64,000 nucleotides of DNA from a virus (Duplodnaviria > Caudoviricetes), in IMG/VR virus record IMGVR_UViG_3300021387_000072, positions 1-64,000 of that record. One strand, 5' to 3'. Within the stretch, counting starts at the first letter, position 1. Each line of letters opens with the position of its first letter. The position numbers and the translations under genes are program-made. The notes below the pieces were generated by a model. The model ran no database searches. It saw nothing but the letters and a program-made list of their open reading frames with translations, and had not been told where the DNA came from. This document shows positions 13,701-43,249 of the stretch, in pieces.

Positions 13701-16700
13701 GAGAACTAAGTTCTGAGAGTATATACCCCTCAATTAAATCATTTGGATTAAGGACGCCTTTTTTATCTTCATAATATCCAAGCAGTCTATTGTAATATTC
13801 ATTGTTTTTATTAAGTGTAGGATTCCTCATTCCACCTAATAACATGGCAGCAAAAGATCTATCGAGTGTTCCGTTTATACCGGCAGCATAGATGTTGGTT
13901 GCATTGGCGTTGCCTTCCATCCATGTCTGTGTTCTTTCATTATCAATACCAGTAAAATGATTCAAGCCAAACTTTGTGCCTGTGTTATTTAACTTCTCTA
14001 TCATACCAGAATACATAATGTCATCTATATTGCCAGCTTGATTTATACCGGCAAGTAATGAAGCTATAGTATCCTGGGAAATCTTTTGAATTTCGCCTTC
14101 ATCCCATTTGACTTTTCCGTTTTCAATTGTGAGTTTTAAATCTTCAATAGCAGTCTTAAGCCAATCTCCAACTGCGTCGCCCAATGAATCCAATGTGGCG
14201 AGAAGTTCAGTTGTACTCATATCTGTATTTAAATCAACTTTGCCAGAAAGCAATGACGAAAAACCTTCGTTAATACCATCTTCGAAATTCTTAACAAGCT
14301 CGTTATATGTTGATTGTACTGTGGCTTTCATCTGTTCTGCATTCGTTATATCTATATCAACACCAGTAAAGTTTTTAAGTATTTCAAGATCAGATGCTGT
14401 ATACGAACCTACACCAGCATTAAGTCTACGCATAGCAGCTGATGCTTTATCTATTTCATCATTCCTTGCTATAAGCTTTGAATACTCTGAAAGCTGTGTG
14501 CTGTACAATTGACCAGGCGTAAAAGCTTCAACGATGCCTTTAGATATATCAGAGTAGTTTGATTCTTTTATTAAACCAGACGCTATTGCGGCGTTTGTGT
14601 TACGCCTCATAGCGTCAACATCGTAATTTCCAGATTCAAGTTCTGTTTGGGATAACCCCATAAGCTCACGCATATTTCCAATACTTAATATGCGCTCTGC
14701 ATCAGCTTCGGAAATATCAAAATAGTTTGCAATATCTTTTGCAGAAAACTTAGCACCATCATGTTCATTTTTGAAGGCCATTAACTGTCGTGCATAATTA
14801 GCAATTTCAGAATCAGAAAAAGTGCTTACTCCATAAGCATATTGATTTGAAAGAGATCTTAATTCATTGTCACTGATTTTTTCTCCACGCGAAAGTCTTG
14901 CCGCAACATCTTCACCATAAACACTTATAATATCTTGTTGCATACGCTGGCGTAATTGTTCGTCTTCAGCAAGCGTAGTCCATGTCTTATTACCTGAGAT
15001 AATACTTTCTGCATTTGTACGTGCTGAATTCAGAATAGAATTCTTACTTCTATATTGTCCTACTGTTTTGTAATCAGATCCAAGAAGAGAAAGCTGATAC
15101 ATAACTGCATTTATATCATCTTGTGTAATAGTTCCAGCTTCATAATGCTCTGTCATAGTCTTCCATGCTGCATTTAAATCTGCACTCTTGGTGTCAGCAA
15201 GGAAGTTTTCAATATTTCCAAATGCACCAGAACTAAGTGCCTCATCTAAATATTTAACAGCTTGATCTGGTTTATAAAGAAGGTTTTGACCTGTTGCCAT
15301 AAATCTATATAAAGAATCAGCAAGAGATGTAAATCCATTCTTAGGTGTTATTGAATAAACAGAACTAATACCACGGCGTTTAGGTGTTTTATCATTACTA
15401 TCTTCGCCATTTGAATCTTCAGGTGAAGAATGTTCTGCCATATAAGCATCTGCATAATCAAAAAGATTGATTTGTTTAGTAGGTGTTATTTTATTATTGT
15501 TTAAATCTGTTTTGATTTTTTCTATAACACCGGATACAACAGTATTTTCATATCCAGCATCAGTTAAAATTTGTCTTGCTTTTGATTCATCTTGTGCTTC
15601 GAACTGTCCAGCTAATGTGTAGTCTCCAAGTATTCTACCATCTGGATCATCTTTAAAAATAGCTCGTATTATTGCAGCTAATATCTCACGAACATTTCCA
15701 TGCTTTGCATCTACTTTTTTATTACCATTAACTATGAAGTTATCGTAATTTGTAAATGTGACACCAGCATTTTGCATTGCATTTAAATAATCATTGATAA
15801 TATTAGCTAAACTATTTCTGCCTTCTATGGGCATGCTAGATAATTCTGTGCTTTTTCCATTAGCATCTACATAACTAGGCATACCTCTTAAATCTAATCC
15901 ATATAATATATCTGCTATTCTATCAGACCCAGTTTTTCCGTTATTAAGGACAAACGGATCCATTGCTGCTCCAAGAAGTTTAACTCCTAAATATGATCCG
16001 AATGATCTTGCCTCAATATCCGTGATTTCTTTTTGTTCTCTTGTTGTTTCAAACTCATTATTATTGTTGAAAAAGTCTGCCCACATTGCATTCCACAATT
16101 GTTCAAGCTGACGTTTATTAAATTTATCAGTTGAATCGGCTGCATTATCAAGAGCTTCCTTTGTTTTATTTGCGCTTGCAGCCATTTCTTCTATACTGCT
16201 AGACGCAGTATCTGATATTGCGCCAAGATTCTGCAATTCGGTTAATGCATTTTTCAGAGATACACTATCTTTTGCAGAAAGAAAACCTTTCTCGTCACGT
16301 CTTTCGTTTATTTCCGATGCACGTTGTTTTAAAGCTTTTATTCTTTTCGTATTCGCAGCATTTTCTGATTCTATATTATCTTGTACTTGTTCATATTGAT
16401 TATCGTATTTTGGCTGTGAAGAATTAAATATACTTAAACCGGCAACTGTTGCAGCACCAGCAGCAAGACCAAGTATTGGATGCCCGGTCATAAACAGCAA
16501 AAGCGTTGGAAGTAATGCAGCAAATGTAGTAAGAATACCCTCAAGACTACCCATACCGCTTGTAAGTTTTTCTACACCAGCAATAGCATTAGTAAGGAAG
16601 TCTATAAATCCAGTAAGTGCACCGCTGTCTGTGAGACTTTCAACAAGAGAATCAAATGTATTCTTAAGATTGGTAAGAGAAGCATTGAGACTATCGAGAT

Positions 16701-19700
16701 AGTAGCTGTACTTCTCATCTGTCATGCCTTCAGAATTTTCACTAAGCTTCAGATATTTATCAATAGCAGTAACACCATTTTCATCACGTTCTGCCATAGC
16801 AGACATAAGAGCATTGATATTAGAATACTGTCTCTGACCGCCAAAAGCATAAGCAAACTGTCCCTTACGAGCGGGAGAAAGATCATCCCACTGTTCAGCA
16901 ACAGCTGATAAAGCTTTCATAAATGGCAGGCGTTCTCCACCTTTATATATATCTACACCAAGCTGCTTGAAGATATTTGTAAGATCAGAGCCGGAGATCT
17001 CATTACCGTTCTCATCATACATGAGTTCCTTAGAACCAACCTTTGCGTAACGTCCCATGAATGTCTGCATTGCAGTACCGGCTACGTTACCGCCAAGCTG
17101 GGTATTAGCAGTCATTGCTGTAAGCATAGACACAAGCTCATTGAAAGAAACACCAACTTCACTTGCCGCATAGATAGATTTCTGCAGACCTTTGGTGATC
17201 TCAGCCGCAGTGGTGGCGGCTGAGTCACCAAGGGCTGAAATAACATCCATAGCCTGCTTGGCAGAATCAACCATGCCAGAATTCATTGCAACTGTAATGA
17301 GCTTAACTGCATCTGCTGCTTTAACGCCAGCTGTTGTACTGAATTTGATAACCTCATTAAGACGTTCTTCTACCTGAGTATCATCAAGACCTTGACGATA
17401 CAGAGCAGTGGCTGCTGATGTAACATCTTTAATAGGAGCTTTGAGTTTAACAGCAGTATCAATCAGCTTATCTCCAAGACCACCAATCTGTTCATCTGTT
17501 TTCAGAGTAACCATTTGAATCTCAGTCATAGCCTGATTAAACTGTTTGGTAAATTGAATAGCTTCTTGCATAGCTTTACGCCAAATACGAGTACCCAGAC
17601 GCTTTGCTATCATACCAACAGTCTGGCTGATAACAGAACCAATAGACTTAAGAAGATTAAAGGAATGATTGAACTGTTCCTGTTCTTTTCTTGCTCTTGC
17701 TATTGAATCCTGAAGCTTTTTATATTCCGCATCCAATGCCGCAATCTTTGCTTTATTAGATTCTACATTTTCACCTTGATCAACTTTATGTTGAAGCTGT
17801 TCTCTAGCATAATCTAAGCGCTTCATTTTTCCTTCATTGCTTTCGATTATGTTAGCAGCCTGATCCTTCATGCTTTCACGCCAGTTATACTCTTGAGCAA
17901 ATCTTGAAGCTATACCATACGAGCGAGTATATCTACGCATGGCAATATTTCTTTCAAACTGTTCTATCTGACGAGCAGCCTGATTGCCTGCAACGTTATA
18001 TTGATGCACATCCATATCAGTCTGAAGAGTATTTAATCTGCCAGCGTGTGCCATATCACGACTCTGATATTGAGCAAGAAGATTCTTTTCATAATCAGAA
18101 AGTTTTTCAACTTGTCCTTTTATATCTTTTTCTCTCTTCTGCATTGCTTCAATAAGTTTCTTGCCATCTTCAGAATTTTCATCTATCGCATTGCCATTCA
18201 TATCAGTCTTGCTTGTAAGATGGCTTTCTATATCAGCAGCTTCACTTGACAGCTTTGCAATGAGTTGCTTAACCTGATTCTGCTGCTTTTTATAATACTC
18301 CTGGACAGCTTCTACTGGTGAAAGATTTCTACCCCTCGTCAGTTGATCAATATTTATATCATTCGTAGAGATGTCAATATCAGATGCAGTACTGTAGTCT
18401 TGTGCGAGCCTCATGTTCATCTTCTGTTTTTCTTCATCAGAAGCTGCACTCTTACGCACCATCTCTACACCGCTCATGAGTTTATCGGTGAGACTATCAC
18501 TGCCATAAAACAGTGTATTTGTTCTACGTTCAATTTCATGTGTAGATCTGTAATAATCATTATCTTGTAAGGCAGTAAGCTCATCTTTTCTTTTTTCAAG
18601 CGCATCCAATTCATCAAAAACTTCTTGTTGTCTTGCAAGTGCTGCTTCAAATTCTGGAGACTTTTTATCTTTAATGGAGTCGGTCTTCTCACTCCACATA
18701 TCAAAATCTTTTTGTTTTTGCGTAATAGCACTTTCAAGTTTCTGTCTCTCAATAGCATGATTCCTTTGAAGCATATTAGCTTCAGTTGTACCGCGAGAGT
18801 TGAGAAGTTCATTCATCTGTAATGTACTATCAAATCTATCAAGACGTGCAAGAGAATATATATCATTGATAATACCTTCAGATTCATTGTACTGTCTATT
18901 GGCTTCGGTGTATTCACCTCTAAGAGCAGTACGCTTTCTTTCCATGTAGGAACGATTTGTCTGAAGATCAGTTAATCTTTTTTGCTCTTCAGCAGAAAGT
19001 GTAACACCATCATTAGGTTTTAATTCTTCTATTTGCCTATCGATATCTTTAATCTGTTGATTATAATTCTGTATTTCCGCAAGAGTTTTGTTTTTTTTAT
19101 TGAAGGCATCATTACGCTGATTAATTCTACGTTCATTCTCAGCATAAGCTCGACTATAATGACTCTCAAACTCACCGTTCTTTGACATATCCCAACGCCT
19201 GGCTTGAGAAGCCGTAGCAAAGTTGATAGCCTGTGCTTCGTTTAATGTATTAGTTCTGAAGTTACTATTGCGTGCGGCTTCATCTTCTCTTGCGTACCGT
19301 TTATTTCTTTCTTCCTGTTGAGGCAATGTATCAGTCATGGCCTTATTGAAAGATTCTTTAAGACCATTCATTGTCTGTACATACTTTTTCAGATCTTCAA
19401 GAAGAGAAGACTTTTCCGTTGACAGTCCAGTTGCTTTCTGCTCAGTTTCCAGTTGATCTATTTGATTCTGAACCTGAAGAACTTCACTGTTAATTTGATT
19501 TACAGTTTGCTGTGCATCAAGAATCTGATTCTGATACTGCTGAGCAATACGCTCACTCAAAGACATATTCTTGCCGCGAGTCATCTGGGCAAGCTTCTGA
19601 GAAAGAGAAGTAGTTCTTACTGAGATATTAGCACTTGTACCTTCACGAAGAGCTTTCATATAATTCTCTTCTTCTTTGCTTCTCTGCTCGTCAGTAAGAG

Positions 19701-22700
19701 TACTATCTTTGCTATTACGGATATTATCAATATTTATAAGACCGCTATGTACAAGAGATGCAATCCTTGACTCACCAGTACCATAAGCGTTGCCAACAAA
19801 GTTCATATAGAGATCACGACGCAGAGCCGCTATATCTCTTCTGTCACTGGATGTGGCTATTCTTTCTTCCGTTGCGTTACGCGCTTCAGTGGCAGCATCT
19901 CTTTGTTTTTCAAGTTCTTCTATCTGAGCTTGTATTCTGGCTCTTTCATTTTCCGTATCCGTATTTGTTCCTGAAGAAATCGGCTTTCCATCTGCTCCTA
20001 AAATTAACGAACTTCCTGGCGCTTGATAAGGTTCTTTATTCAGCTTGTCTAATTCATTTTGTTTTTCTGTGATTTGATTATTTAATCTTTCAATATCCAG
20101 ATCCTGACTATCTCTTTGACTATACAAGTTGTTAAGATTTGCTTGCTTAGATGCAATAGCATTAAGAATAGGATTGCTTTCACCAAATCTTTGATATGTA
20201 CCAAAAGCAGTATTCGTCAATCTATTTAAATCAGTTTGATCAGAAAGTCTGTACCTCTGATAGCGCATGCTGTTTAAGGAATAATTCAAATTCCTATTAG
20301 CTCTATCTCTGACTTCAGCTATTTCTTCTTGCTCTTCTCTCTTTAACCTATCGGGTTCTCTCAGTGCATCAATCTGCTTTTGATGTTCAATAAGACGTTC
20401 ACGTTCTTTTTCAAGATTGTCTTTAACATGTTGTCTGTTAGCACTAAGCTCTCCTTGAAACTCCTTAGAACTTAAACGTAATTCAATATCAGAGATAGCA
20501 TGCGAAGTATTAATCTTTTCTTGTTCAAGTTGCATGCGTCTTGCCTGATAGGATTCACGAACCTGTTCTTCAGGTGTAAGACTTCTTGATAAATTAAAGC
20601 TGTTAAGACGCTGTCTTCTTGATTCATCCTGCAGTTTCATATTATGTTCCATGGCAGCATGCAGTTCATTGTACCTTACTGTTTTATCGTAAGGGCTTCC
20701 ATGTTCCATAATCTCGCTAAGACCTTCCGTCATTGAAGAAAGTGTTTCTTCTCTGACACCCCAAAGACCTCTACGCCAGGATGCTTCTGTTTCCTTTGTG
20801 CGCTTTGTGCGATACTCATCAAGCTTACCTTTAAGAGCTTCTGCATCTTTTACATCCTGTTGTAATTCTTTACTTCTGGCTTGTTGTGCTTTTATCGTTT
20901 CTTCATCTTTTATTATCTTATTGCCTTGATCATCAGTTGCTTCAAGATCGCTTGCAATTCTCTTAATAGTGTCTGTCCGTGATGAAATATAATCTTCAAG
21001 ACTATCTGCTATACCATCAAAATATGAATCTACTTTATCAAAAGGATCTGCTCCAGATTTTGTAAAGTCAAGGCTCTTAAGAATTCTTCTTTCAGCTTTT
21101 CTTTCACTTTGAAGTCTTCTATTTGCTCTAAGCTGAATTCCTTTCACACCACGATCCTTGTCTTTTGTCATCGATTCAATGGCTGCTGTAAGATCATCAT
21201 ATATCTGTTGATCTTCTGCTTCGGTAAGAGACCAGTTTCCATCTTTATCTTCTGTGTATAATTTTTGCTCTTTACGTTTTGCTACAAAAGCGTCACGAAG
21301 TTTGCTGACTCTTTCTATATCTCTGTCGTATGAATCTATAAGATCTTGATCTTTAACAAACGATTCAGATACACCATTTACTTTTCTTCTAAAATATTCA
21401 GGAAGCATCTTGGCTTGATGCTTTGTATAGTTTGTAAAAGCCTTTTTTGTTTCTTCTTCTTTATCTATAACAGCTTTGTTAATGTTTCCGACAAAAGCTT
21501 GAAGCTCTAGATTATCCTTGTAATCATCTGCCCCTTGAACACCTTTAACAAAAATATCAGACTGACGCTTGAATGCATCCAACCAACCAAACATTGCATT
21601 GAAATGCTGTTCATCACTTGTTAACTCATCATTAAAACGGAGATCTTTCTTTAAAAAGTTTGAAAGTTCATTACCGTTATTAGCGACCTCGGAATACATA
21701 GTCTGAGCTTTTTCAAAACGCTCTCTTCTTTGTCTTGCTGTTTCCTGTATGTCCGCTGCTTTCTGAAGCAAAGCTACCATTGGATCTTCTGGAGGCTGTT
21801 CAGGCTGTTGTTGATTGTTAGAAGAACTTGATTGATCGCTCGTAGTATTTGCTTGTGAAGAAGTATTAGTGATAGTAGGTGTAGAAGTTTGTGGTGGTAT
21901 AGGTATTTTAATTAAACCATTTTCTATATCAGTGCGAACTGCGTTTTGATATTTCGCATACTCAGCCTTATCTATTGTGTCCCATGCTTTCTTTCCATAA
22001 TCTTGTGTGTAAGCAAATCTGATTTTTCTAAGATTATCATCTTGTGCAAAAGCATCATTTGTTTCTACCGCCTCTATATTTGACTGATATGATATGTTGC
22101 CTTGTTCATCTTTTACTTGCGTCAAAAACATTTTATAGGGGTCGTAGTAATGATCGCCTTCCCAAGCTTTTCTTGCAAATTCTTCAAGCTTATGTGCATA
22201 TGCCATAGCTTGCAGCAATCCTTTTTCTGCACCGTGCCAAGATGATTTATGGTCACCAACTATAAACTTACCGTTCGCTCCCTGTAATATATAGTCAGGA
22301 GCAAAACGAGACATAACTGGATTCCCTTTGCTGTCAAAAATACCATTTAATTCAAAAGGTATTTCTCCTTTTACAAGATCGTCAGCATTACTTGTCTTTG
22401 TTAGTCCAAGTCTTTTTGCTGTAGCTTCATCTACGTTTATCTTGCCTTCGGTACTTATTACATGTTCTCCATCCCATTGTTCTGAATCAAACGGATGGAA
22501 TGTATCACTCATGTAATTGAATAAAAACTGACCTGGTTGTTGCTTGCCATCTTTGCCAGAATAGATCGTATTAAGCTTTTTATTAATTCTTTTTGCTTCA
22601 CTTTTTCTTCCATCCAATGCTGATCTAACTCTGCCAGTTTTTTCATCGATTTTAAGTTCAGCAGCATCAAGCAATTCTTTTGGCTGTGAATTAAAAAAAT

Positions 22701-25700
22701 CATTCCACAAACCTGCAGTTTTTTCAGATGTCAATTCATCAGTAGGAAGTTGTGCCAGTTCATCCATTACATAACTTATGGCAGATCCAATCAATGCATC
22801 AGCATTAGTGTTTTCTGTATCGACCCAACCTTTTTCACCGGCATGCTGTGCTGCACGAATTTCAGCTTTTAACTGCTCTGCTCTATGAGCATTTGTATTT
22901 CCTACTCCGATGTTAACAGCTTTTTTATATTCTTTATCTGTTACAATATTATTATTGTTATCAAAAAAAGTCAGTCTATCTGCTGGCAATTGAAAAGTAG
23001 TTTCAGTTAATCCATTGCCTGCGATAAATGGCATACTTCGTGTTACTGTATATTCAGTATAATCTCTTGCGCTTAACAATTTGCCATTAGCATCTTTAAC
23101 TTTAGTATCAATAGGATCTTTTTCTATATTGGAAAGATTCCAACCTAAAAGTCTTGAATCAGCATAAGCTTTTCTTTCTGCTTCACTGGCTGATAATACT
23201 GTCTGTTGTTGCGCAGCAGCGGCATTCTGCTGGGCCGCTTGCTGCGCTTGAGCAGCTTGTTGCTCTTGAGCTGCTTGAGCTTGCGATGCTTGTTGTGCCG
23301 CCTGTTGCGCTGCTTGCTGTTCTGCTGTCTGCCGCGCTTGATCATATTCAGCTGCTTCCCGTGCTTGTTGCTGAAGCTCTTCTTCTCTGCGTTTTTCTTG
23401 TTCCTTCTGTGCTTTTTCATACCGCGCTCTCTGCATAACGGCTGTTTCATATGGGCGAGACAATTGCCGGTCTTCGCCAGCAAGAAACATATTTCTAGTT
23501 GCTGTCGGCATATTTTGATCTGTCAAAACCTTCTCATAAGTCATGCCGAAGTTCTTCAGATTTTCAACAACGTTTATGCCGCCGTCTCTAATATCGGCTA
23601 TACCAAGTTCTTTAAATAAACGTTGCGATTCAGCTTGCGCAGTTTTTATCTTGCCATTTTCATCTCTTAAATAAGTTTGATTTTCAAAATCATAAAGATT
23701 GCCATCAATACTTTTTTTACTGAGATTTTCTGAGATTTCTTCTTTTGCTAAATTTGCCGCAATTTGAAGCCTTTGCATATCTACATCTGATGTTAATATC
23801 TTCTCACCTGATTCGTTGGCTGGAAACAGTTGCATATACATATTCATGAAATTTTTAGTTCGTTCGCCAAGATCAGCATACTCTTCTGAATCATATATAA
23901 GATGAGTTATACCTTCAGATGCAGCATCGGTCATACTTTTATCCATATAAGGAGAAGCCCATTTTCTAAACAGAGCGCCTGATTGTGCAGCAGCACTGTA
24001 AAAAGATGGAAGATTTGTATGCATTAAGTTTATCTTCTTTAAAGCATCCATATCTACAATCACACCGTTTGATGCTTTAAAGTACCGTCTATCCCATTCA
24101 TCTGCTTGTTGCAAAGAAGACTTATCATTCAACGCACCTTCTGGCAGATTAGCTAAACGCATCCTTTGTGCTATTATTTTCTTTCTATCTGCCAATGTAA
24201 GATCTTCCAAATTGTCTACATTGTAATGCCTTTTTATATAAGTTCTATCTTTTCTATTAAAACCTTTAAAGTCTAAATTCCCTGCATCTCTGTCACTAAT
24301 ATGTTCCGGCTTTATATCATTTTTAAAATATCTTCCGAGAGGCAGGTCTATACCAGGAGTAATATCCAATAAATTAAATTTAGAATATTCTTTGCCAAGG
24401 TTTAATGAATTCCATGCATAGTCAGAAACTTTACCTTCACCTGGTCTCTTTGCAAGAGTAGACCAGTAGTTATAAGCTTCAGTACCTTCGAGACTTGATA
24501 AAATCAATTCAAGATTTGCATCATCTGATAAATCTGCCTGATTAACTCTACGAGCCATTGCATCAGCAAGACCCATTCGAATCTGTTGTTCGATTAAATT
24601 TTCAGCATAAGAACTCTTGATATTTTCATCATTTGGAATAGCAGTTCCATCACCTGTTTTAGGTGTCCATGTGAACATACCTTTTGTTGGTCTTCCGGCT
24701 TTCTTAACACGATCCCAGTGAAATTCCTGTGTCTCCTTAAACATCGGTACATACGTACCAATAATTCTTTTAATAAGGTCACCGTCAAGGTCAGCACCTT
24801 GAAGTGCATTCCAGTCTTCTTGACCAAGCATTACGCCACCAGTCTCAACAAAACGAGGAGCAAGGTTACCAATTTTCGATGAATCGTAATTATTTGCAAG
24901 AGCATCAAAAATTACACCAAGTTCTCTGGCTCTGTTTTTACCATAAACAAAACTGCCAATAGCCGTAGGACTTCTGCCAAATGCAATATATTCTTCATTC
25001 GGAACTGAGAAGTCAGCAACATTACTTATCTCTCTGCCATCTATATCTCTACTTCTTCGCAACAGCAAAATATCTTTAACACGTTCTTCGACAGCTTTTC
25101 TTCTATCTTCTGTTGCATCTTCTGCAATATCATATGTTGTTCCAAACAGTTTATTCCCATCTTTATCAGTCGCATTAGACAATGCTTCCTGTGCGATTTT
25201 TACAATACCGTCTGGAACACCATAAGCCTGATATAAAGCAGTAAGTGGATTCATAGAGTTTTCTATTATTCCAAATTCTTTGCCACTGAAATCAATCCAT
25301 TCATGACGTGACATTCTCTGTATTAATGAATCTCTATATTCTTTAATCTTTGTCTGTGCTTCATCTGAACCTATTAGCATTCTTGCTCTGTTCTCTGTTG
25401 CACTATTTATCTCTCTCGAAAGTGGATCATTGGGATCTTGAAAAACATATTTTTTAATACCTTCCAATGTATCCAATTCTTTCATTCTCTGTTCAAAGTC
25501 AGCACGTTGTCTTTCCTGCATCTCAGGACTTATGCGCATATATTCAGTCATTTGTGTTCCGAGATAATCAGACTTAGTACTGCGAGAATCGTAGTCAACC
25601 ATCTGACCAATTGGATGATGCCTAAGAAGTTCACCAGCTATATTATTAACACCAACAGCCAACATAGTTGGATCATTAGTTGCGTTTTGATCATACATGC

Positions 25701-28074
25701 CGTACTGCTTTTGTGCGGCATCCATTACAACATCAAGGTTTTTTATCAATGATGCATCCATAAACCCATTATAGTTTATAGCGTCAAACCTAACGGGTTT
25801 CATAATGGTTTTGCCATTTTCATCTTTTGTTTCGTATTTTATTGGACTGTTTACCCACCAATGATAATCTTCAGTAGGGTTACCATTAATATCTTCTTTA
25901 ACCGCAAGACCTGAACGTATGGCAAAGTCTCTGTTTGTTTCACCAGGAAGCCTACGCAATGACCCTTTGAAAGCAGTGCCGCCTCTAAACTGCATATTTG
26001 CAGGAAGCATATCTTCAGATACAAAACCAATACCGTCAAGATATTTTATTTTTCCTGTCTCATCTCTGGTATCGATAATAGCAATGTTTCCAGGAACTGT
26101 ATGCATTTTGCCTTTTTCATCATAAATAGTACGATCAAGAGTAATACCTGTTTTTGTTGTTGGAGTCCAGAGTTTATTTAAAGCATCGAAATATCTGCCA
26201 GCTTCTTCCTCCGACATAAATGGAGCATTAGGATCTCTGTACAGACTAAAGGCATTTCCTTTAAAACCAAGTCCTTTAGCCCATGCTTCATTTTTTTTGA
26301 TATAATCATTCATAGCATCTTCAGATATCATTCTGATAACAGCACCGCCTGCTTCCTGATGGGAAGCATGCGCTATCATATGATTATATCCGTCTACTTT
26401 TTCAAAAGACATTTCACCTGTCTCAGGATTTACCCATGCACCATTTTTAAAAATATCTCTTACACGCTGTACATGTTCAGCATTGTTTTTGTCATAGCCA
26501 TCCATCGATATAAGAGCTATTCTGTCATGCGCTTTTGAATTATGTCCACGTTCCTCAAGACCAAGCATTCGAGTCATTTCAGACTCAGGTATTGTTTCGT
26601 AATTTGTTGTACCTGACATACCTCCGAACAGCTGGTGTTTGCCGATAACATATCTATCGTACCCAACTTTCATTGGTGTTATTTCTTTTCTTTCAGTACG
26701 GCTATCTCTTCTAGATGATGTCCATCTTTGATCGTCGCTCATGCTTTCTATGCTGTCAAGCATACGAAGAGCATCAAGACTTTGTCGTGAGGATCCACCT
26801 TGCATACGGTTAAAGATAAACTTCTTGACTTCGTTCGAAGAATCTCCCTCTTCAGTTCCTTTTGCAAGATACATATTGTTAAGCCAGGAATTGAGACCAG
26901 TAGAACTCGTTCTGTTTTCGAATTGATTCCACATGTAACTACGGATATCTTCAAGATCGTCGGCTGTTAAACCTTCTCTCATTTCTACATATCCATGCGG
27001 ATTATAATAAGCAAGCGTTTGATTATCGCGTGAACGCTTCATTGTAAGCATTGCTTTTGCAAAAACCGGGTTATCCCGCATTTGTGCTTGAAGCATATTC
27101 ATTACTTGCTGAGAAAGATATTTACCGGAACTTTGTTGTGTATCACGTCTTTGATATGCTTCTTTATCCCATGCGCTTTTGAAACTTTCAGGTATCAACA
27201 ACGCCGGGTCTGTGTATGAATGTTTTTGTGCTCTGTTTAAGTTTATTCCATAAACAGGTTTAGTGAATTCACTTAATCTTTCAGGAGCCATAGTATGTGC
27301 AACAAGATGCTGTATATATTGCTGCATGTTTCTGTATGCGGCATTTCCAAATTCATCTTCATCGCCCCACATACCACCTTGAGGACCTTTTGCCTGACCA
27401 AAGAATGGTTCAAGTATTTTTTGAATTCTCTTATCTGCCATAATAGCATCAGAGATTTCATTCAAACTACTTCTCGCAATAGCATCAGATCCATTGTAAT
27501 TAGGAGCAGTTCTTCTCTTTATAACATTTACTATATCTGATGTTATAGCGTTAAGCCCTGCGGCACGTTCTTGACCAAGTGCACCTATAATACCTTGCAT
27601 ATATTGTTTGGAATGATTTATACCAAAAGGAGTATCACCAGTAACCATTGTTGCAAGTTGATTATATTCCCTTTGGCTGATAAGCAGATCGTTATAAGCA
27701 TTCTGCTTATTTTCCAATGACATATTGGTATTCTTAATCAGACCATCAATTCTCCGTGTAAGACCTTCCGCAGTAGTGCCAGCTCTTACAAGACTTCTTT
27801 CAAGCATGGATCCAAATACAGGAAGTCCTTCCATTGAAGCAGTAAGACCTTCAAACTGTTTCTGTGTATTCGCCACCTGGGCCTGCATAGTAGCGAGCAA
27901 TCCGTTAAGAGCTTCAAGTCTCTCGGCATCACTTGGTGATGTTATGCTACCTTGCTCAGAAGATTGTTCCAGCTTCTGCTTTTCAGCCTCAACCTCTTTC
28001 ATCTCTTCAAGCGTTTGACTTGCATTACTGTGCAAAGTAAGTTCTAAGTCTATGTTCTTCTTGTTATCAGACAT
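7741..28074 (-). CDS. Giant tape measure polyprotein (6777 aa): two-barrel RNAP-like domain, PD-(D/E)xK nuclease-like domain, coiled-coil repeats, TMP core and TM segment
   Basis: Lies between chaperones and Dit; TP901-type TMP core about aa 3500-3830 ('MDVISALGDSAATTAAEITKGLQKS'); hydrophobic segment about aa 3846-3883; RNAP motifs D680GIG, Q695FRGG..K703G, R1034SP, D1095LDGD; nuclease PD1927..D1941HK..Q1955xxxY. Confidence 0.9.
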   Translation of the reverse strand: MSDNKKNIDLELTLHSNASQTLEEMKEVEAEKQKLEQSSEQGSITSPSDAERLEALNGLLATMQAQVANTQKQFEGLTASMEGLPVFGSMLERSLVRAGTTAEGLTRRIDGLIKNTNMSLENKQNAYNDLLISQREYNQLATMVTGDTPFGINHSKQYMQGIIGALGQERAAGLNAITSDIVNVIKRRTAPNYNGSDAIARSSLNEISDAIMADKRIQKILEPFFGQAKGPQGGMWGDEDEFGNAAYRNMQQYIQHLVAHTMAPERLSEFTKPVYGINLNRAQKHSYTDPALLIPESFKSAWDKEAYQRRDTQQSSGKYLSQQVMNMLQAQMRDNPVFAKAMLTMKRSRDNQTLAYYNPHGYVEMREGLTADDLEDIRSYMWNQFENRTSSTGLNSWLNNMYLAKGTEEGDSSNEVKKFIFNRMQGGSSRQSLDALRMLDSIESMSDDQRWTSSRRDSRTERKEITPMKVGYDRYVIGKHQLFGGMSGTTNYETIPESEMTRMLGLEERGHNSKAHDRIALISMDGYDKNNAEHVQRVRDIFKNGAWVNPETGEMSFEKVDGYNHMIAHASHQEAGGAVIRMISEDAMNDYIKKNEAWAKGLGFKGNAFSLYRDPNAPFMSEEEAGRYFDALNKLWTPTTKTGITLDRTIYDEKGKMHTVPGNIAIIDTRDETGKIKYLDGIGFVSEDMLPANMQFRGGTAFKGSLRRLPGETNRDFAIRSGLAVKEDINGNPTEDYHWWVNSPIKYETKDENGKTIMKPVRFDAINYNGFMDASLIKNLDVVMDAAQKQYGMYDQNATNDPTMLAVGVNNIAGELLRHHPIGQMVDYDSRSTKSDYLGTQMTEYMRISPEMQERQRADFEQRMKELDTLEGIKKYVFQDPNDPLSREINSATENRARMLIGSDEAQTKIKEYRDSLIQRMSRHEWIDFSGKEFGIIENSMNPLTALYQAYGVPDGIVKIAQEALSNATDKDGNKLFGTTYDIAEDATEDRRKAVEERVKDILLLRRSRDIDGREISNVADFSVPNEEYIAFGRSPTAIGSFVYGKNRARELGVIFDALANNYDSSKIGNLAPRFVETGGVMLGQEDWNALQGADLDGDLIKRIIGTYVPMFKETQEFHWDRVKKAGRPTKGMFTWTPKTGDGTAIPNDENIKSSYAENLIEQQIRMGLADAMARRVNQADLSDDANLELILSSLEGTEAYNYWSTLAKRPGEGKVSDYAWNSLNLGKEYSKFNLLDITPGIDLPLGRYFKNDIKPEHISDRDAGNLDFKGFNRKDRTYIKRHYNVDNLEDLTLADRKKIIAQRMRLANLPEGALNDKSSLQQADEWDRRYFKASNGVIVDMDALKKINLMHTNLPSFYSAAAQSGALFRKWASPYMDKSMTDAASEGITHLIYDSEEYADLGERTKNFMNMYMQLFPANESGEKILTSDVDMQRLQIAANLAKEEISENLSKKSIDGNLYDFENQTYLRDENGKIKTAQAESQRLFKELGIADIRDGGINVVENLKNFGMTYEKVLTDQNMPTATRNMFLAGEDRQLSRPYETAVMQRARYEKAQKEQEKRREEELQQQAREAAEYDQARQTAEQQAAQQAAQQASQAQAAQEQQAAQAQQAAQQNAAAAQQQTVLSASEAERKAYADSRLLGWNLSNIEKDPIDTKVKDANGKLLSARDYTEYTVTRSMPFIAGNGLTETTFQLPADRLTFFDNNNNIVTDKEYKKAVNIGVGNTNAHRAEQLKAEIRAAQHAGEKGWVDTENTNADALIGSAISYVMDELAQLPTDELTSEKTAGLWNDFFNSQPKELLDAAELKIDEKTGRVRSALDGRKSEAKRINKKLNTIYSGKDGKQQPGQFLFNYMSDTFHPFDSEQWDGEHVISTEGKINVDEATAKRLGLTKTSNADDLVKGEIPFELNGIFDSKGNPVMSRFAPDYILQGANGKFIVGDHKSSWHGAEKGLLQAMAYAHKLEEFARKAWEGDHYYDPYKMFLTQVKDEQGNISYQSNIEAVETNDAFAQDDNLRKIRFAYTQDYGKKAWDTIDKAEYAKYQNAVRTDIENGLIKIPIPPQTSTPTITNTSSQANTTSDQSSSSNNQQQPEQPPEDPMVALLQKAADIQETARQRRERFEKAQTMYSEVANNGNELSNFLKKDLRFNDELTSDEQHFNAMFGWLDAFKRQSDIFVKGVQGADDYKDNLELQAFVGNINKAVIDKEEETKKAFTNYTKHQAKMLPEYFRRKVNGVSESFVKDQDLIDSYDRDIERVSKLRDAFVAKRKEQKLYTEDKDGNWSLTEAEDQQIYDDLTAAIESMTKDKDRGVKGIQLRANRRLQSERKAERRILKSLDFTKSGADPFDKVDSYFDGIADSLEDYISSRTDTIKRIASDLEATDDQGNKIIKDEETIKAQQARSKELQQDVKDAEALKGKLDEYRTKRTKETEASWRRGLWGVREETLSSMTEGLSEIMEHGSPYDKTVRYNELHAAMEHNMKLQDESRRQRLNSFNLSRSLTPEEQVRESYQARRMQLEQEKINTSHAISDIELRLSSKEFQGELSANRQHVKDNLEKERERLIEHQKQIDALREPDRLKREEQEEIAEVRDRANRNLNYSLNSMRYQRYRLSDQTDLNRLTNTAFGTYQRFGESNPILNAIASKQANLNNLYSQRDSQDLDIERLNNQITEKQNELDKLNKEPYQAPGSSLILGADGKPISSGTNTDTENERARIQAQIEELEKQRDAATEARNATEERIATSSDRRDIAALRRDLYMNFVGNAYGTGESRIASLVHSGLINIDNIRNSKDSTLTDEQRSKEEENYMKALREGTSANISVRTTSLSQKLAQMTRGKNMSLSERIAQQYQNQILDAQQTVNQINSEVLQVQNQIDQLETEQKATGLSTEKSSLLEDLKKYVQTMNGLKESFNKAMTDTLPQQEERNKRYAREDEAARNSNFRTNTLNEAQAINFATASQARRWDMSKNGEFESHYSRAYAENERRINQRNDAFNKKNKTLAEIQNYNQQIKDIDRQIEELKPNDGVTLSAEEQKRLTDLQTNRSYMERKRTALRGEYTEANRQYNESEGIINDIYSLARLDRFDSTLQMNELLNSRGTTEANMLQRNHAIERQKLESAITQKQKDFDMWSEKTDSIKDKKSPEFEAALARQQEVFDELDALEKRKDELTALQDNDYYRSTHEIERRTNTLFYGSDSLTDKLMSGVEMVRKSAASDEEKQKMNMRLAQDYSTASDIDISTNDINIDQLTRGRNLSPVEAVQEYYKKQQNQVKQLIAKLSSEAADIESHLTSKTDMNGNAIDENSEDGKKLIEAMQKREKDIKGQVEKLSDYEKNLLAQYQSRDMAHAGRLNTLQTDMDVHQYNVAGNQAARQIEQFERNIAMRRYTRSYGIASRFAQEYNWRESMKDQAANIIESNEGKMKRLDYAREQLQHKVDQGENVESNKAKIAALDAEYKKLQDSIARARKEQEQFNHSFNLLKSIGSVISQTVGMIAKRLGTRIWRKAMQEAIQFTKQFNQAMTEIQMVTLKTDEQIGGLGDKLIDTAVKLKAPIKDVTSAATALYRQGLDDTQVEERLNEVIKFSTTAGVKAADAVKLITVAMNSGMVDSAKQAMDVISALGDSAATTAAEITKGLQKSIYAASEVGVSFNELVSMLTAMTANTQLGGNVAGTAMQTFMGRYAKVGSKELMYDENGNEISGSDLTNIFKQLGVDIYKGGERLPFMKALSAVAEQWDDLSPARKGQFAYAFGGQRQYSNINALMSAMAERDENGVTAIDKYLKLSENSEGMTDEKYSYYLDSLNASLTNLKNTFDSLVESLTDSGALTGFIDFLTNAIAGVEKLTSGMGSLEGILTTFAALLPTLLLFMTGHPILGLAAGAATVAGLSIFNSSQPKYDNQYEQVQDNIESENAANTKRIKALKQRASEINERRDEKGFLSAKDSVSLKNALTELQNLGAISDTASSSIEEMAASANKTKEALDNAADSTDKFNKRQLEQLWNAMWADFFNNNNEFETTREQKEITDIEARSFGSYLGVKLLGAAMDPFVLNNGKTGSDRIADILYGLDLRGMPSYVDANGKSTELSSMPIEGRNSLANIINDYLNAMQNAGVTFTNYDNFIVNGNKKVDAKHGNVREILAAIIRAIFKDDPDGRILGDYTLAGQFEAQDESKARQILTDAGYENTVVSGVIEKIKTDLNNNKITPTKQINLFDYADAYMAEHSSPEDSNGEDSNDKTPKRRGISSVYSITPKNGFTSLADSLYRFMATGQNLLYKPDQAVKYLDEALSSGAFGNIENFLADTKSADLNAAWKTMTEHYEAGTITQDDINAVMYQLSLLGSDYKTVGQYRSKNSILNSARTNAESIISGNKTWTTLAEDEQLRQRMQQDIISVYGEDVAARLSRGEKISDNELRSLSNQYAYGVSTFSDSEIANYARQLMAFKNEHDGAKFSAKDIANYFDISEADAERILSIGNMRELMGLSQTELESGNYDVDAMRRNTNAAIASGLIKESNYSDISKGIVEAFTPGQLYSTQLSEYSKLIARNDEIDKASAAMRRLNAGVGSYTASDLEILKNFTGVDIDITNAEQMKATVQSTYNELVKNFEDGINEGFSSLLSGKVDLNTDMSTTELLATLDSLGDAVGDWLKTAIEDLKLTIENGKVKWDEGEIQKISQDTIASLLAGINQAGNIDDIMYSGMIEKLNNTGTKFGLNHFTGIDNERTQTWMEGNANATNIYAAGINGTLDRSFAAMLLGGMRNPTLNKNNEYYNRLLGYYEDKKGVLNPNDLIEGYILSELSSLSGFTELYKDGTLDTDKLNELKTGIKKYRTNDEKLANVKDYVSQIITGTKDRGTLSKSDNLKDIQAIADMQEVLGSEYYDRLMNGENISKFTDYLYNKYQFGTDTANSLQYARWASDILAQVDSGTFNAKSWQDTNGVTGEQYNNILSRFAGLDRVISGSTDVNDRYNVEKAIETVKHLDNIAESDYADTTRSFVSSFGLGTYDQQASALAGLMSNLRTYSKVSLAAGTAQGKSYDYMKKNEAAALSELQSFANREIDAGNFEEVLQTVTERINTTLKNYVQGIANGFEHVFEINKIDLEHDMNTDEIIETLGTGVSDMLKSAIRELNVRIENGEVLFDENQFNEMTSEIYSSILYGLSSGDSMQKTILTAMRNKRNGAEGSLSTLTGFSDATIKQFMEGNDLANILFNASEETLPANIRNLMFDAMLNPVTGKGSSYQLELLKYFRDNQDSILSNQDNAFNAQILSDLNGVAGFSDYITNGVGSIDQIIADLVNQILTGSVGKTDWAETQASIIKGFGGTYSERTSTMSSVLSQRKTYGDALRAIERIRAGELTDQNLQAVQAATNRKDLTLENIEQNLTDVESDVYSNISNWTTGVGKGIFDTLQLGSSPFLEMDSESLYNYALKNNPQIAQLVKSIGARYENGEVVFDTPATNDQLGSFYSNLDYASRNFANQQERSVLTGLQTIFGNNQYAGQKTMDALAGMQGLENVDWSTYIKDHADINTLIQARDEGSITDEQALAMLEPYANPYQSRSSNYYAAYLDWWKTHEDERDNVFGQHAQSVLGQLSSWSNYVNYGNEEDLLAEIEQLDLDKSKDNYSQLVSYLGAWSGSQSSRDSLQSQFMAQSRTNANNRYLLDAMEQGRASTSTYEQIASALGNGWTADMVKGNQALARKMLEQQMQESDDTVRDFFNAELKQYADVLDNQNLSTPDVDISSIVEALKSTGDTAAQQLAEMIESWSESLGASESDNPFKDKYDEVASNIKSNAAYNLYGMAREFAKSGIDLNNKDDVTGWLEDNQYTDEQFNNIISDSEYVAFTEARNSGIITDPMYDEYLRGKQYGISGRTTEYGESLMSKLFGGADWTGDASSLDLNSARSVYQNMLAQGFDVDSELQATGVEGMEDLISAFKDGTTTGEEFADVMSKVNNGFDKKHSSDVHRYADNAEEVASNFNTLKGRAKDVTSFMSNMNKTMAQANDNQYWRSQYRKGNRNNDVLDKISEMTGFDKKDLTDKSKADVIEEALQRAEEGDLDMINDYIDTFTSDIQDAVNAQGAIEIIGPEVYVSGGTVTMSSEEVLSQLGAFINEDVAAMIQMMQAAGVEAYWDISEVNGKLTAKLNTSKTGFAGGGTGRKASGGGGGGGNSETDAQKLLKRIKHGKSLYEHQIKMVQYEETKYQNKGELSNYGKMLEEEIKLEQAYQPVLETNIQKIKDQMAATKSGSDDWYDLRDALLAAEEEMSELNNTIEENQKKLEENQEAIRQTRITLEDMLAQEIQNRIQKQRDMLAGTVSMQDTILQAIRDRYTKEWELVKKDIDKKKQALEEEKSLIDERLQMRKDAEDEAEKYEELAELKKQLALIEMDSTRTKDAAEMRKKISDIEKDIGWDIAEKQADAQKASIDDQTKAYDDYVTAGDEQLATFLEDANNFTSEMTEIMGMNHDQLFAWLQNNVDEFKNSLAKAQEQMVQSWNDTWKQMTGQTDTYWDWINQILATKESFLDFMKQSDDYINKSATEQQSLLYTWGQQYDAMIDANILNASWYHDDPNTGDWYGTEYVGGKGGSGSGSGSGGSSNNSGSNKNKNNKNGPSITPVVDEAKDDVVDITDLVYGNKNKTPTITPTSNVANIVMNEVKNRILKTAVKADTGTYTGDQEGLLYVHEKERVLNAQQTAAFEELVDTAEQMYHSNMFDNIIEAMHTYSDFVRVPSMLSDFSPSDFKNSTTSTIGDVIITLNEAKFEDEADYEAVARHVGEQFVKELTRQGLGVPVFGF

Positions 28075-28097
28075 ATATATTCACCTCATATTCTTAA

Positions 28098-28141
28098 TGC
28101 AGAAGCCAAGAATCGAACTCAGCAGCTGTACCATTTTCTGC
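28098..28141 (-). ncRNA. Mini tRNA-like element (acceptor stem plus T arm only)
   Basis: GCAGAAA-ATGGTACAGCTG-CTGAG-TTCGATT-CTTGG-CTTCTGC-A. Confidence 0.5.
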
Positions 28142-28145
28142 ATAT

Positions 28146-28175
28146 AAAAGCAGTCAGCTCTCATAAGCTGACTGC
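28146..28175 (-). terminator. Terminator-like hairpin upstream of TMP
   Basis: GCAGTCAGC/GCTGACTGC stem then TTTT on the minus strand. Confidence 0.6.
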
Positions 28176-28183
28176 GAGTTCAT

Positions 28184-28639
28184 TCAAGGTTTCTTCTTTT
28201 CAAATGTCATACCGGGAAACAGATTGCTTATCTTATCTGCATTGTCTTCCCTTGTTATGCCGGTAGAAGCAGATCCCTCCTTGGATTCTGCTTCACCGGC
28301 ATTGTTTGCTTTCATATACTCCACCAGATTCTTGAACAGTTCGTTCTGCTGTTGTGCCATAACCGGATCTACACTCTTGCCGATGATGTTAATGACATCA
28401 TTGGCAAGACGGTTCAGCATATTTCTACCAGCATTCATCCTGTCTTTCTCAAGTTCTATAACTCTGTGGAGTTCATCCCATGTCAGTTCGTAGTCATCTA
28501 CAATAGATGGATCAAGATCTGACTTCTTCAGCACATACGCATAGTCCGGGTTAACGTAGAATGTGTAGGACTCCTGATCGTAATCCACACAGCCCGGAAG
28601 GATAATATTCATATAGTCATTATATGTCATGTTAATCAC
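28184..28639 (-). CDS. Hypothetical tail-region protein
   Basis: 151-aa ORF overlapping the upstream gene, in operon. Confidence 0.65.
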   Translation of the reverse strand: MINMTYNDYMNIILPGCVDYDQESYTFYVNPDYAYVLKKSDLDPSIVDDYELTWDELHRVIELEKDRMNAGRNMLNRLANDVINIIGKSVDPVMAQQQNELFKNLVEYMKANNAGEAESKEGSASTGITREDNADKISNLFPGMTFEKKKP

Positions 28640-30285: not shown

Positions 30286-31131
30286 CAATATGTTCAGTAC
30301 AGTTCGTTAGGCTGTACCCGCAACTTAATGCAGCTCTATATTACTATAGAAGTTCAGACTATATCACGATCTCAGAGAGATCACTGCCATTCAACCCACT
30401 TGGGTATTTAGTCGTTAGGCTTTTAGGAGAAATAATACCAATGCATTCCATGATACATATGGCTTTCACTTCTTAAAGCACTGCTTATCTTATTAACTCG
30501 TCCTTTTATATCTTGTGCCGCTTCAGTTAATGAACCATATACTTTGTTTGTTTCTTTACATATTATCTTTTTAGCGCATGGACTCTTGGAACCAGAAAGC
30601 TTTTCAGTTATTTTCTTTTTGGATTCATCTTTCCATACACGTTTTCTATTTGCTTCAGAAATAATATCTCTTGTCTTTTCGGAATGCGTATGTCCAAAGA
30701 ATGGATTATCTTTGCCGGGTTGAGATAAACCACCACGTTGCACGTTATATCCAAACTCTGGGTTCTGTGATTTATATTCTTTAATCATATCAGTTTCATA
30801 CTTATATGCATCTTCTTTATTGAGTCCTGCCTTTAATATTATATGATCAAAAGAAGCCCATCCATATTCCTGGATGGCTTCCCAAAATCTCGGTGTTACT
30901 TTGTAATTCTTTCCATCTCTTCCGTAGCGGATTTCTGGTTTAAGACTTGTAGCTCCGATATAAACCTTGCCATTAATCTTATTTTTATGCATATAAACTG
31001 TATATTTTTTATCCATATTATCTCTCCATTTAGCACGGTAAGTTGTCCTATGTTACCCTCAATCACATAGGAGTTTCTCCGTTTAGACAGTTTTGCAATG
31101 TGCCTCGCGACACAAGGCGCCAGTTTTACTT
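30286..31131 (-). mobile_element. Group I intron (846 nt) with homing endonuclease
   Basis: Exon 1 ends in U, intron ends in G; P1 CGCU/GGCG; P10 AACU/GGUU; R/S elements AACGACTA and GATATAGTCT. Confidence 0.9.
30423..31016 (-). CDS. Intron-encoded GIY-YIG homing endonuclease with NUMOD3/NUMOD1-like repeats
   Basis: 'TVYMHKNKINGKVYIG', 'GYN', 'NPFFGHTHSEKTR', 'KIICKETNKVYGSLTEAA'. Confidence 0.9.
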   Translation of the reverse strand: MDKKYTVYMHKNKINGKVYIGATSLKPEIRYGRDGKNYKVTPRFWEAIQEYGWASFDHIILKAGLNKEDAYKYETDMIKEYKSQNPEFGYNVQRGGLSQPGKDNPFFGHTHSEKTRDIISEANRKRVWKDESKKKITEKLSGSKSPCAKKIICKETNKVYGSLTEAAQDIKGRVNKISSALRSESHMYHGMHWYYFS

Positions 31132-41379: not shown

Positions 41380-41404
41380 TGCAGTTTCCTCCTGCAAATT
41401 ATTA

Positions 41405-43249
41405 TCATGACACTGTTATTGTTGCCGAAGTGCCAGTGAATGTTGGCTGTGATACCGTGCCTGCTGGGGTATACTTACCTGTAGAAGTAAGAGATGCGCC
41501 AGTAAAGATAAGCTCCTTGCCAGTACCGGTAAAGGTAGGCTGGCTTGAAGTAGCGCTCTTAATACCGGTAGCGATCGTCTGACTTGAAAATGTAGGCAGA
41601 GTTACAGCCGTGGGCGTATTCGCAGTGAAGCTGCCAGCGGTCCAACCAAATGTCAGCGTTTCATTGGATACACTCGTAGTAAGCTCTGGCAGTGTACATG
41701 ATGCCTTCGTACCGGCAGTAACAGCACCACCACCACTTGCAGAAGCAGCCACATACTTCGTAGCTGTATTCACTGTCACTGTGATTGTAGGCGTACTTAC
41801 AGTACCAGCAGGCGTATAGTTTGCAGTACCCTCGCCGATACTGATTGTACCGGCTGGTGTGCCAGTCACTGACACGGATTTTTCAGTACCGGTGAATGTT
41901 GGCTTTGAAACTGTACCGGCAGGCTTATAAGTAGTAGAGGCACTATCTTTAAAAGCCAGAGCTTTAAGAGAACCGGTAGAGCCAAATTCATGCCATTTGT
42001 TATCTGTGCTTGAGAATATAAATTCAAGAGAACCGTAGATAACGATATCACCGGACTGAGGTGTATAGTTATTGGAATCAATAACGATAGGGGATGTAGT
42101 CGCACCATTCGTAAGTGCTGTGGTTGTTACGCCACGGTAATGCATACCACCTGACAGTGCAGTAGTGATAGGCTCAAGCACACTGGAAACATACGTTGCA
42201 ACAGCTGCAGACGTAGGCAGATTGCTGCTGCTTGCTGAAAGAGTTGTATCAACACCCTTTGCAGAAGCTGCGGCAAGTGTATAGCCGTTATACGTCTTAT
42301 TCGTAAGAGCCTGTGTATCACTGAGGTTTACAACCTGCTTACCATTTGAATACAGATGGTTACTCGAAATGTACACATTATCATTACTGTATGTCTGAGG
42401 AGAAGCAGCCTGGGTCTTAGCACCAATGACAAACAGCTTATTCGTTTCGTCATTTGTAGAACCAGTGGTGTTGGTTGTATTTGTAGGTACAACCCACGCA
42501 CCGTCACCGCGCAGGAAGCTTGCCTGCTTTCCTGCAGCGGGTGCTGGCACAAGACCTTTTGTACCGGCTGCTTCAGCAGTAGCACCACCCATTACAGTAC
42601 CCGGTATCGTTATCGTCCTTGAAGTGCCTGATGTAACGTGACCAAGCGTATTGGTTGTAATATCAGTAACAGTGAATGTACCGCCAAAGCCAGGAGATGC
42701 ATCTGCATCTGGCTTGCCATCTACAGCAGTGTAAGTTGGATGTGTGTACACGGTGTCTGTAGGCTTTGCCCATGTACCGTCACCACGAAGGAACTTACCC
42801 TGCTCACCAGCGGCTGGTGCAGGCACAATACCTTTCTGACCGCCAGCTTCTGATGTGGCACCTTTAAACTGCTGTTCTCCAAGGAAGACGAAATTTGTGC
42901 CGTCGTATATGTATTCATATACGTAACTGGCAATGCCACCGGCTCCAATATAACTTGAAGTAACAACGCCGCTCTTATAATAGATAGGCTTTGCCCCGGT
43001 ACCATTGACATTAAGCTTTGGCGAAGCAGCCGTGTTTGTGTTTGTGAATTTGACAGCGATGATAGCACCCGGCTGAAGTTCCCATCCGGTAACGCCACTT
43101 GCAAGTGTAACGGCTTTCTCTGCTGTGCCTGCTGCTGTTTCACAAGTGCCGAATGTGACATTGGTATAAGTCAGGTGTGATCTCGCTGTAGCGTCTTTGA
43201 TATTATATGAACTGCCAGAAGGCAGAACAACTTTTGAAATATCAGCCAT
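41405..43249 (-). CDS. Fibre protein with P(A/T)GTVSxPTFTGT repeats
   Basis: Shares 'MADISK...YNIKDAxAR' and 'FGTCxTAAxT' with the downstream fibre; TAATG coupling to the upstream gene. Confidence 0.75.
   Translation of the reverse strand: MADISKVVLPSGSSYNIKDATARSHLTYTNVTFGTCETAAGTAEKAVTLASGVTGWELQPGAIIAVKFTNTNTAASPKLNVNGTGAKPIYYKSGVVTSSYIGAGGIASYVYEYIYDGTNFVFLGEQQFKGATSEAGGQKGIVPAPAAGEQGKFLRGDGTWAKPTDTVYTHPTYTAVDGKPDADASPGFGGTFTVTDITTNTLGHVTSGTSRTITIPGTVMGGATAEAAGTKGLVPAPAAGKQASFLRGDGAWVVPTNTTNTTGSTNDETNKLFVIGAKTQAASPQTYSNDNVYISSNHLYSNGKQVVNLSDTQALTNKTYNGYTLAAASAKGVDTTLSASSSNLPTSAAVATYVSSVLEPITTALSGGMHYRGVTTTALTNGATTSPIVIDSNNYTPQSGDIVIYGSLEFIFSSTDNKWHEFGSTGSLKALAFKDSASTTYKPAGTVSKPTFTGTEKSVSVTGTPAGTISIGEGTANYTPAGTVSTPTITVTVNTATKYVAASASGGGAVTAGTKASCTLPELTTSVSNETLTFGWTAGSFTANTPTAVTLPTFSSQTIATGIKSATSSQPTFTGTGKELIFTGASLTSTGKYTPAGTVSQPTFTGTSATITVS

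Follow-up and report, generated by a model that had tools for sequence, protein, structure and literature searches.

We describe a giant tape measure protein (TMP) of an uncultured phage from an animal gut metagenome, the N-terminal part of which is probably an RNA polymerase (RNAP) of the cellular type, to all appearance complete, carried in the virion. The DNA analyzed here (the window) comprises the initial 64 kb of the 126,028-bp virus record IMGVR_UViG_3300021387_000072, which has a 56-bp terminal overlap and is classed as complete. The TMP gene lies on the minus strand at 7741-28074, where it forms an uninterrupted frame of 6,777 amino acids (aa) without a stop codon. We consider it likely that TMP residues ~470-1235 constitute a single-chain, two-barrel, DNA-dependent RNAP of the YonO/QDE-1 type, which would share one polypeptide with the tail ruler, be delivered by the tail and carry out pre-early transcription. 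The two-barrel polymerase reading of the N-terminus is well supported by sequence motifs, their conservation and the predicted fold. An original prediction, made from the DNA sequence, had proposed a double-psi-barrel polymerase at this place, and it gains support from the conserved motifs, a profile match to YonO and the fold model presented below.

Results

The polymerase core (aa 470-1235; 24370-26667, minus strand, as are all coordinates within the TMP gene) is the sole N-terminal segment common to all 29 other giant homologues. Three signature motifs can be read in its translation exactly as the original prediction quoted them, namely LDGIGFVS...MQFRGGTAFKGSL (aa 679-706), FGRSP (aa 1032-1036) and LQGADLDGD. 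The first contains the first-barrel (beta-like) motif DGIG...QFRGGTAFKG (aa 680-704; 25963-26037) of a putative double-psi beta-barrel (DPBB-B), assigned by conservation and by its pairing with YonO. The second holds an RSP motif that precedes the catalytic loop (aa 1034-1036; 24967-24975), and the third the predicted metal-binding DLDGD of the second barrel (DPBB-A; aa 1095-1099), which lies at 24778-24792 as predicted.

Homologues were sought with HMMER (phmmer) by comparing aa 450-1550 with the full set of 1.8 billion protein representatives. About 30 of the 44 matches are proteins of 3,700-6,800 aa that carry the domain at aa ~370-1100, and the others are short fragments; neither a free-standing protein nor an annotated polymerase was found among these matches. 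In a MAFFT alignment of 30 N-termini, which share an overall identity of ~25-48%, residues G681, Q695, R697, K703, G704, R1034, P1036, D1095, D1097 and D1099 are kept in all 30 sequences and D680 in 28, while position 1098 is occupied by G, A or S. The DxDxD metal-binding triad is therefore complete in every homologue, and the loss of aspartates that the original prediction had named as a ground for rejecting a polymerase is not seen. The basic residues of the other barrel, R697 and K703, are likewise invariant together with Q695 and G704, and they align to the R/K-G motif of YonO. Among the 442 ORFs (open reading frames) of at least 60 aa in the genome, the pattern D.D[GAS]D is found at no more than four places, three of them in polymerase-like proteins. 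Given this rarity, and given that the motif residues vary little or not at all among 30 homologues, the motif is not attributable to chance.

Comparison of the homologues segment by segment with phmmer revealed exactly three modules that occur in all 29 relatives: the polymerase core (aa 470-1235), the TMP core (aa 3450-3900) and the last ~630 residues. By comparison, aa 1235-1560 are common to only five of the 29. Because the three modules are common to all of these relatives, the fusion is an architecture of long standing that has been conserved, and it did not arise by accident in this assembly.

Residues 300-1400 were modelled with AlphaFold2 from an alignment of 24 sequences; the mean pLDDT is 74, with residues ~469-1229 mostly above 80. 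The model contains two beta-rich regions with a helical region between them, and a long helix after DxDGD (model residues 851-880); the overall fold of two DPBBs is thus found in the predicted model. Comparison with the PDB by Foldseek gave 18 matches at E<=0.001, all of them to QDE-1 or RDR2 (best E 8.5e-9), and the Foldseek and VIA matches taken together include RDR2, QDE-1, gp62, gp96 and gp66. The top 15 VIA rows and the 18 Foldseek matches are all single-chain two-barrel polymerases, and the largest subunits of multisubunit RNAPs come next. In BFVD, a collection of predicted viral structures, the best matches are phage proteins annotated as RNA-dependent RNA polymerases (RdRP; E 7e-12), followed by crAss-like phage proteins. 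The AlphaFold and Foldseek check suggested in the original prediction has accordingly returned a predicted two-barrel fold with matches to QDE-1, RDR2 and also gp66.

The family profile of the TMP polymerase matches YonO of phage SPbeta in hhalign with Prob 92.6-94%; the aligned regions exceed 400 collinear columns and E lies between 1e-7 and 5e-7, the best alignment reaching Prob 94% and E 1.4e-7 over 429 collinear columns. These alignments pair DGIG...QFRGGTAFKG with DGCG...VRLPWVKG of YonO, RSP with its LRSPH and DxDGD with its DxDGD. Against a 25-sequence profile of the YonO-like family found in the genome itself, the trimmed core gave Prob 61.5% and E 8e-5. The alignments to YonO were collinear in every run, whatever the score. 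A BLASTP comparison of the domain with YonO was non-significant, and the model of phrog_8308, the PHROG family that includes YonO, searched against the phage's own genome, matched only two free-standing genes and not the TMP domain. The profile matches suggest a specific affinity to YonO, which we grade as moderate and not strong because the family-profile scores are weaker and depend on the input.

The tape measure identity of the giant protein is supported by its core, its hydrophobic segments and its position between tail genes and the genes for the distal tail protein (Dit) and the tail tip protein (Tal). The core (PF10145, aa 3547-3742; 16849-17436) has a Pfam E of 3e-20, is common to all 29 homologues and matches the SPbeta TMP, YomI, by BLASTP (E 1.5e-17), and 10 of the 11 PHROG families that match the TMP-core third of the protein are tape-measure families. 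A hydrophobic, probably membrane-inserting segment follows at aa ~3843-3885 (16420-16548; 19-residue Kyte-Doolittle windows >=1.6). The protein ends in a conserved C-terminal module (aa 6150-6777; 7744-9627) for which phmmer found a match in each of the 29 homologues (best E 1e-218); neither this module nor the polymerase region had a tblastn match among 50,697 GenBank phages. Downstream, the gene adjoins that for Dit (6590-7666, minus strand; phrog_33 E 6.6e-13, PF05709 E 1.9e-8), which is followed by one for a Tal-like tail tip protein of 1,956 aa (706-6576, minus strand; PF06605 Prophage_tail E 1.5e-10, with a weak YOMG_N match). The large terminase (TerL) is encoded at 49671-51314, upstream of the TMP gene. 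Both the assignment of the 6777-aa ORF to the TMP position and the placing of a TMP core at about aa 3500-3830, as originally predicted, agree with these findings. A polymerase domain and a bona fide TMP are thus found in one polypeptide, with the polymerase at the N-terminus, which is the arrangement of gp96 of Thermus phage P23-45.

Between the polymerase region and the rest of the protein lies a low-complexity linker of 74 residues rich in Q and A (aa 1552-1625). Read from the sequence, it spans 23200-23421, in agreement with the ~23200-23420 given in the original prediction. In a related strain, present in a second sample, 6 nt are missing in frame from this linker (23261-23271, minus strand). 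Beyond the linker, the motifs PDYIL, GDHK and QAMAY (aa 1925-1959; 22198-22302) were recognized by motif reading as a candidate PD-(D/E)xK-like site, in which the order PD...GDHK...QAMAY follows the pattern of RecB-type PD-(D/E)xK nucleases. Among the 29 homologues, phmmer found this segment solely in a 5,632-aa relative (P0008). Its three nearest named clusters in a protein atlas are all PD-(D/E)xK, with scores of 0.88-0.89 that fall under the threshold of 0.9, and a single-sequence AlphaFold model of aa 1640-2090 was unusable (pLDDT 36). We regard a second cargo, a putative nuclease, as a lead only.

Two free-standing YonO-like polymerases are encoded in the same genome. The first, of 915 aa with DFDGD at aa 563 (56357-59104, plus strand; phrog_8308 E 9e-23), is a candidate non-virion RNAP. 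It matches YonO by BLASTP (E 1.9e-7) and the YonO family by hhalign (Prob 97.5%), and it is very divergent, with only two relatives in a search of 5.8 billion proteins. Its gene opens a plus-strand block whose transcription leads away from the structural operon. In a plus-strand cassette downstream of this gene we observed a type II hammerhead ribozyme (61211-61289, plus strand), which scores 39.1 bits against an Rfam gathering score of 37; of the other ribozymes that had been proposed for this DNA, none was detected at that threshold. The second polymerase, of 954 aa with DCDGD at aa 589, is a clear YonO orthologue encoded outside the window (genome positions 75666-78530, plus strand; phrog_8308 E 7e-183). 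Its identity to YonO is 34% across 878 aa, and the cultured relatives closest to it all come from phages of Bacillota. Its C-terminus is a Cys-rich, zinc-ribbon-like tail with a weak resemblance to Rpb12. One relative, with a TMP polymerase that shares 33% identity with the one described here, also has a YonO-like gene on the same contig. Just upstream of that gene are an RVT_1 reverse transcriptase gene and an AAA/nSTAND3-like gene.

Further proteins of the genome match those of SPbeta by BLASTP, including TerL (YonF, E 3e-33) and an exonuclease (YonJ, E 1e-12), in addition to the TMP core. The Tal-like protein matches YomG (E 1e-4), and a YonR-like repressor is also encoded. On the contig of the closest relative, Pfam matches to YonB, YomU_Tube and YomX_C occur beside its TMP. 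These similarities suggest that the phage backbone is distantly SPbeta-like.

Several other features were noted in the genome. Two tRNA genes detected with Rfam models (52616-52698 and 53082-53155, minus strand) lie just upstream of the structural operon, and a GIY-YIG-type homing endonuclease gene (30423-31016, minus strand; phrog_314 E 2e-31) is situated among the tail genes. In the head/tail module, two large neighbouring proteins of 1,858 aa (35821-41397) and 618 aa (41405-43261), both on the minus strand, match the functionally uncharacterized family phrog_4302, and the larger protein does so in three stretches. The 22-nt word ATGTGAGGTGCAAATCCTCACC, which has the look of a tRNA T-arm, occurs five times genome-wide, mostly outside the window, and its core GGTGCAAATCC occurs seven times.

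Discussion

Tape measure proteins exit the virion at infection and help to form the channel for the DNA. The giant TMP would be packed in the tail tube, leave it at infection and help to build the DNA conduit, so that its N-terminal polymerase would arrive in the cell together with the DNA end that enters first. Once inside, it would transcribe pre-early genes without the host polymerase while staying tethered through the Q/A-rich linker. The pre-early genes would probably include one or both of the free-standing YonO-like polymerases, which could then take over. By analogy with P23-45, the enzyme borne by the ruler may start transcription and the free enzyme or enzymes continue it. We infer catalysis, presence in the virion, delivery and target genes from the features of the protein and its genome, and delivery together with the TMP is a reasonable expectation.

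It is hardly conceivable that the giant ORF is an artefact, in the form of either a chimeric assembly or a polymerase gene and a TMP gene read as one. The genome is derived from a metagenome and the length of the ORF is extraordinary, which could raise such a suspicion. However, a 31-kb Logan contig with an even depth of ~70x covers 8500-28400, nearly the entire TMP ORF, with zero differences, and a second sample contains short, low-depth fragments along the ORF that are 95-99% identical and represent a related strain. Given this single deep contig and the fragments from the second sample, there is no sign of the chimera that the original prediction had allowed for. The architecture of polymerase, TMP core and C-terminal module also recurs in 29 other proteins from other samples. 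Contigs from RNA libraries map along the TMP ORF as well, although such contigs are not proof of transcription. Another very improbable reading sees in the domain a polymerase that has lost its activity and is now just a structural or plug element of the tail. This could explain why standard family models miss the domain, and its size seems awkward for the lumen of a tail tube; yet the catalytic signature residues have been kept across 30 sequences at ~25-48% identity while their surroundings vary. Because these residues are invariant amid variable surroundings, the domain appears to be under selection as an enzyme.

Two further alternatives accept an active polymerase. In the one put forward by the original prediction, the enzyme would be delivered with the ruler but cut from it, for example at the Q/A linker, either while the virion is assembled or once the TMP has been ejected, and would go on to act as a free protein. 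Some TMPs undergo processing, the linker separates the polymerase region from the remainder of the protein, and the deletion found between strains indicates that it tolerates in-frame indels as a flexible tether would. We nevertheless judge cleavage unlikely. The sequence reveals neither a protease site nor dependence on a protease, the region after the core is patchy among relatives, as the distribution of aa 1235-1560 illustrates, and gp96, the only case studied, was found at full length in virions, which leaves obligatory cleavage without precedent (PMC10770324). Alternatively, an active two-barrel polymerase could have a main job other than the synthesis of early mRNA, such as pulling in the genome by transcription, making primers or copying RNA. 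The best structural matches, QDE-1 and RDR2, are RNA-dependent polymerases and would fit the last of these. We consider this rather improbable, since likeness of fold does not give template preference, YonO as the nearest sequence relative and gp96 are both DNA-dependent transcriptases, and a double-stranded DNA phage has no obvious RNA template at entry. Early transcription by a tethered, tail-delivered polymerase is the reading that we prefer.

Several results weigh against this interpretation. The first 1,700 residues have no match in Pfam or PHROGs (E<=0.01), or among PDB sequences searched by phmmer. Global TM-scores against QDE-1 are low (~0.3), and with the untrimmed alignment the hhalign score against the genome's YonO-like family falls to Prob 7.5% (E 0.005). 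The helical connector between the barrels, which is ~130 aa longer than that of YonO and differs from the short connector of gp96, makes storage in the tail and threading through it harder to picture. A search for shared promoters with exact 11-16-mers recovered tRNA-like repeats only, and one with 10-mers allowing one mismatch in intergenic DNA recovered only AT-rich or Shine-Dalgarno-like words. A search of viral and genome contigs for relatives of the single protein found none, and hence no host or prophage was identified.

TMP-borne polymerases have been described in print as a feature peculiar to four Thermus phages, and the principle of a TMP-RNAP is therefore not new. What is novel here is the lineage of the polymerase, the phage and its habitat, the inter-barrel architecture and the presence of two extra polymerases. 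With another polymerase lineage, another phage lineage and a mesophilic gut habitat, and with an architecture that ~30 sequence clusters have in common, the present case would point to a recurrent and general means by which long-tailed phages transcribe their early genes independently of the host. We give roughly even chances to the wider picture of an SPbeta-like clade of gut phages that underwent an independent fusion in the YonO lineage, uses a cascade of three polymerases, delivers its polymerase without a flat shape and carries nuclease cargo in some of its rulers. The genome also offers an example of three two-barrel polymerases within 126 kb. The ruler, at 6,777 residues, exceeds that of P23-45 by one third in length; the P23-45 tail measures ~800 nm, and simple extrapolation suggests a tail of roughly a micrometre here.

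Sequence comparison detects only YonO as a relative of the TMP polymerase, and both contain the DGxG...KG, RSP and DxDGD motifs. The two differ in that YonO of Bacillus phage SPbeta is a free-standing protein of 839 aa that is not known from the virion, and in the spacing from KG to DxDGD, which is ~391 aa here and ~263 aa in YonO. The SPbeta TMP has only ~350 residues ahead of its core, too few to accommodate a polymerase, unlike the TMP described here. The eukaryotic RNAi polymerases QDE-1 and RDR2 share 10-12% identity with the domain; they are cellular and RNA-dependent and have no virion role, and the Pfam RdRP model (PF05183) does not match the TMP polymerase domain. The virion RNAP gp66 of crAss-like phage phi14:2 (PDB 6VR4) is not a TMP and belongs to short-tailed phages, and its structural match is much weaker than those of RDR2 and QDE-1.

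The closest precedent in architecture is gp96 of Thermus phage P23-45, a TMP-fused virion RNAP that also occurs in phages P74-26, G20c and TSP4 (Chaban et al., 2024, Nat Commun 15:317, PMC10770324; bioRxiv 2022). The original prediction had held that no such fusion was known in siphoviruses, a claim that gp96 refutes (PMC10770324). This 5,002-aa TMP has an N-terminal two-barrel RNAP with DFDGD at residues 779-783 and a minimal active fragment of aa 327-1124, and in virions the RNAP is part of full-length, uncleaved gp96 (PMC10770324). The enzyme binds to a 9-kb pre-early region, which it transcribes from AT-rich promoters, and this region encodes a second, non-virion RNAP, gp64 (PMC10770324). 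Crystal structures of gp96 (PDB 8H2M/8H2N) show a flat, clamp-less enzyme, a shape proposed to permit passage through the tail (PMC10770324). The RSP motif described here fits the filter [RK]xP-x(20-100)-DxDxD applied in that study (PMC10770324). In the part covered here, its supplementary survey of phages with >=2 RNAPs flags no TMP fusion outside the Thermus group.

Like gp96, the TMP described here has a probable membrane domain and is accompanied in the genome by separate two-barrel polymerase genes of putative non-virion type, in this case two, giving three polymerases per phage compared with two in P23-45. Their sequences, by contrast, are not related at any detectable level: hhalign of the family profile against gp96 or gp64 gave Prob 0.1-0.6% (0.1-0.5% for gp96), which amounts to no similarity, and no protein of the present genome matched the examined region of P23-45 (30-84 kb) by BLAST. 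In a pattern search, the DGxG...KG motif shared with YonO was absent from both gp96 and gp64. DxDGD lies at aa 1095 here and at aa 779 in gp96, and P23-45 comes from a hot spring rather than an animal gut. The most conspicuous structural difference is the inter-barrel region, which is modelled here with confidence as a helical domain of ~225 residues (model residues ~481-705), whereas gp96 has a disordered connector of 67 residues. While gp96 has been studied experimentally, the TMP polymerase described here is known from its sequence and a model. Since it has no detectable similarity to gp96 or gp64, shares a motif with YonO, belongs to an SPbeta-like backbone and has a different connector, we take an origin separate from the Thermus fusion as probable, with a YonO-like gene joined to the TMP in an SPbeta-like lineage; a small probability remains that this fusion and the Thermus TMP-RNAP descend from one fused ancestor and have diverged to an extreme degree. 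If the injected enzyme keeps its large inter-barrel domain, delivery through a tail would not depend on a flat, clamp-less form like that of gp96. The protein described here would then be a natural test of that idea, and a second system beside gp96 in which to understand how an enzyme of ~760 residues is housed in, and threaded through, a tail tube.

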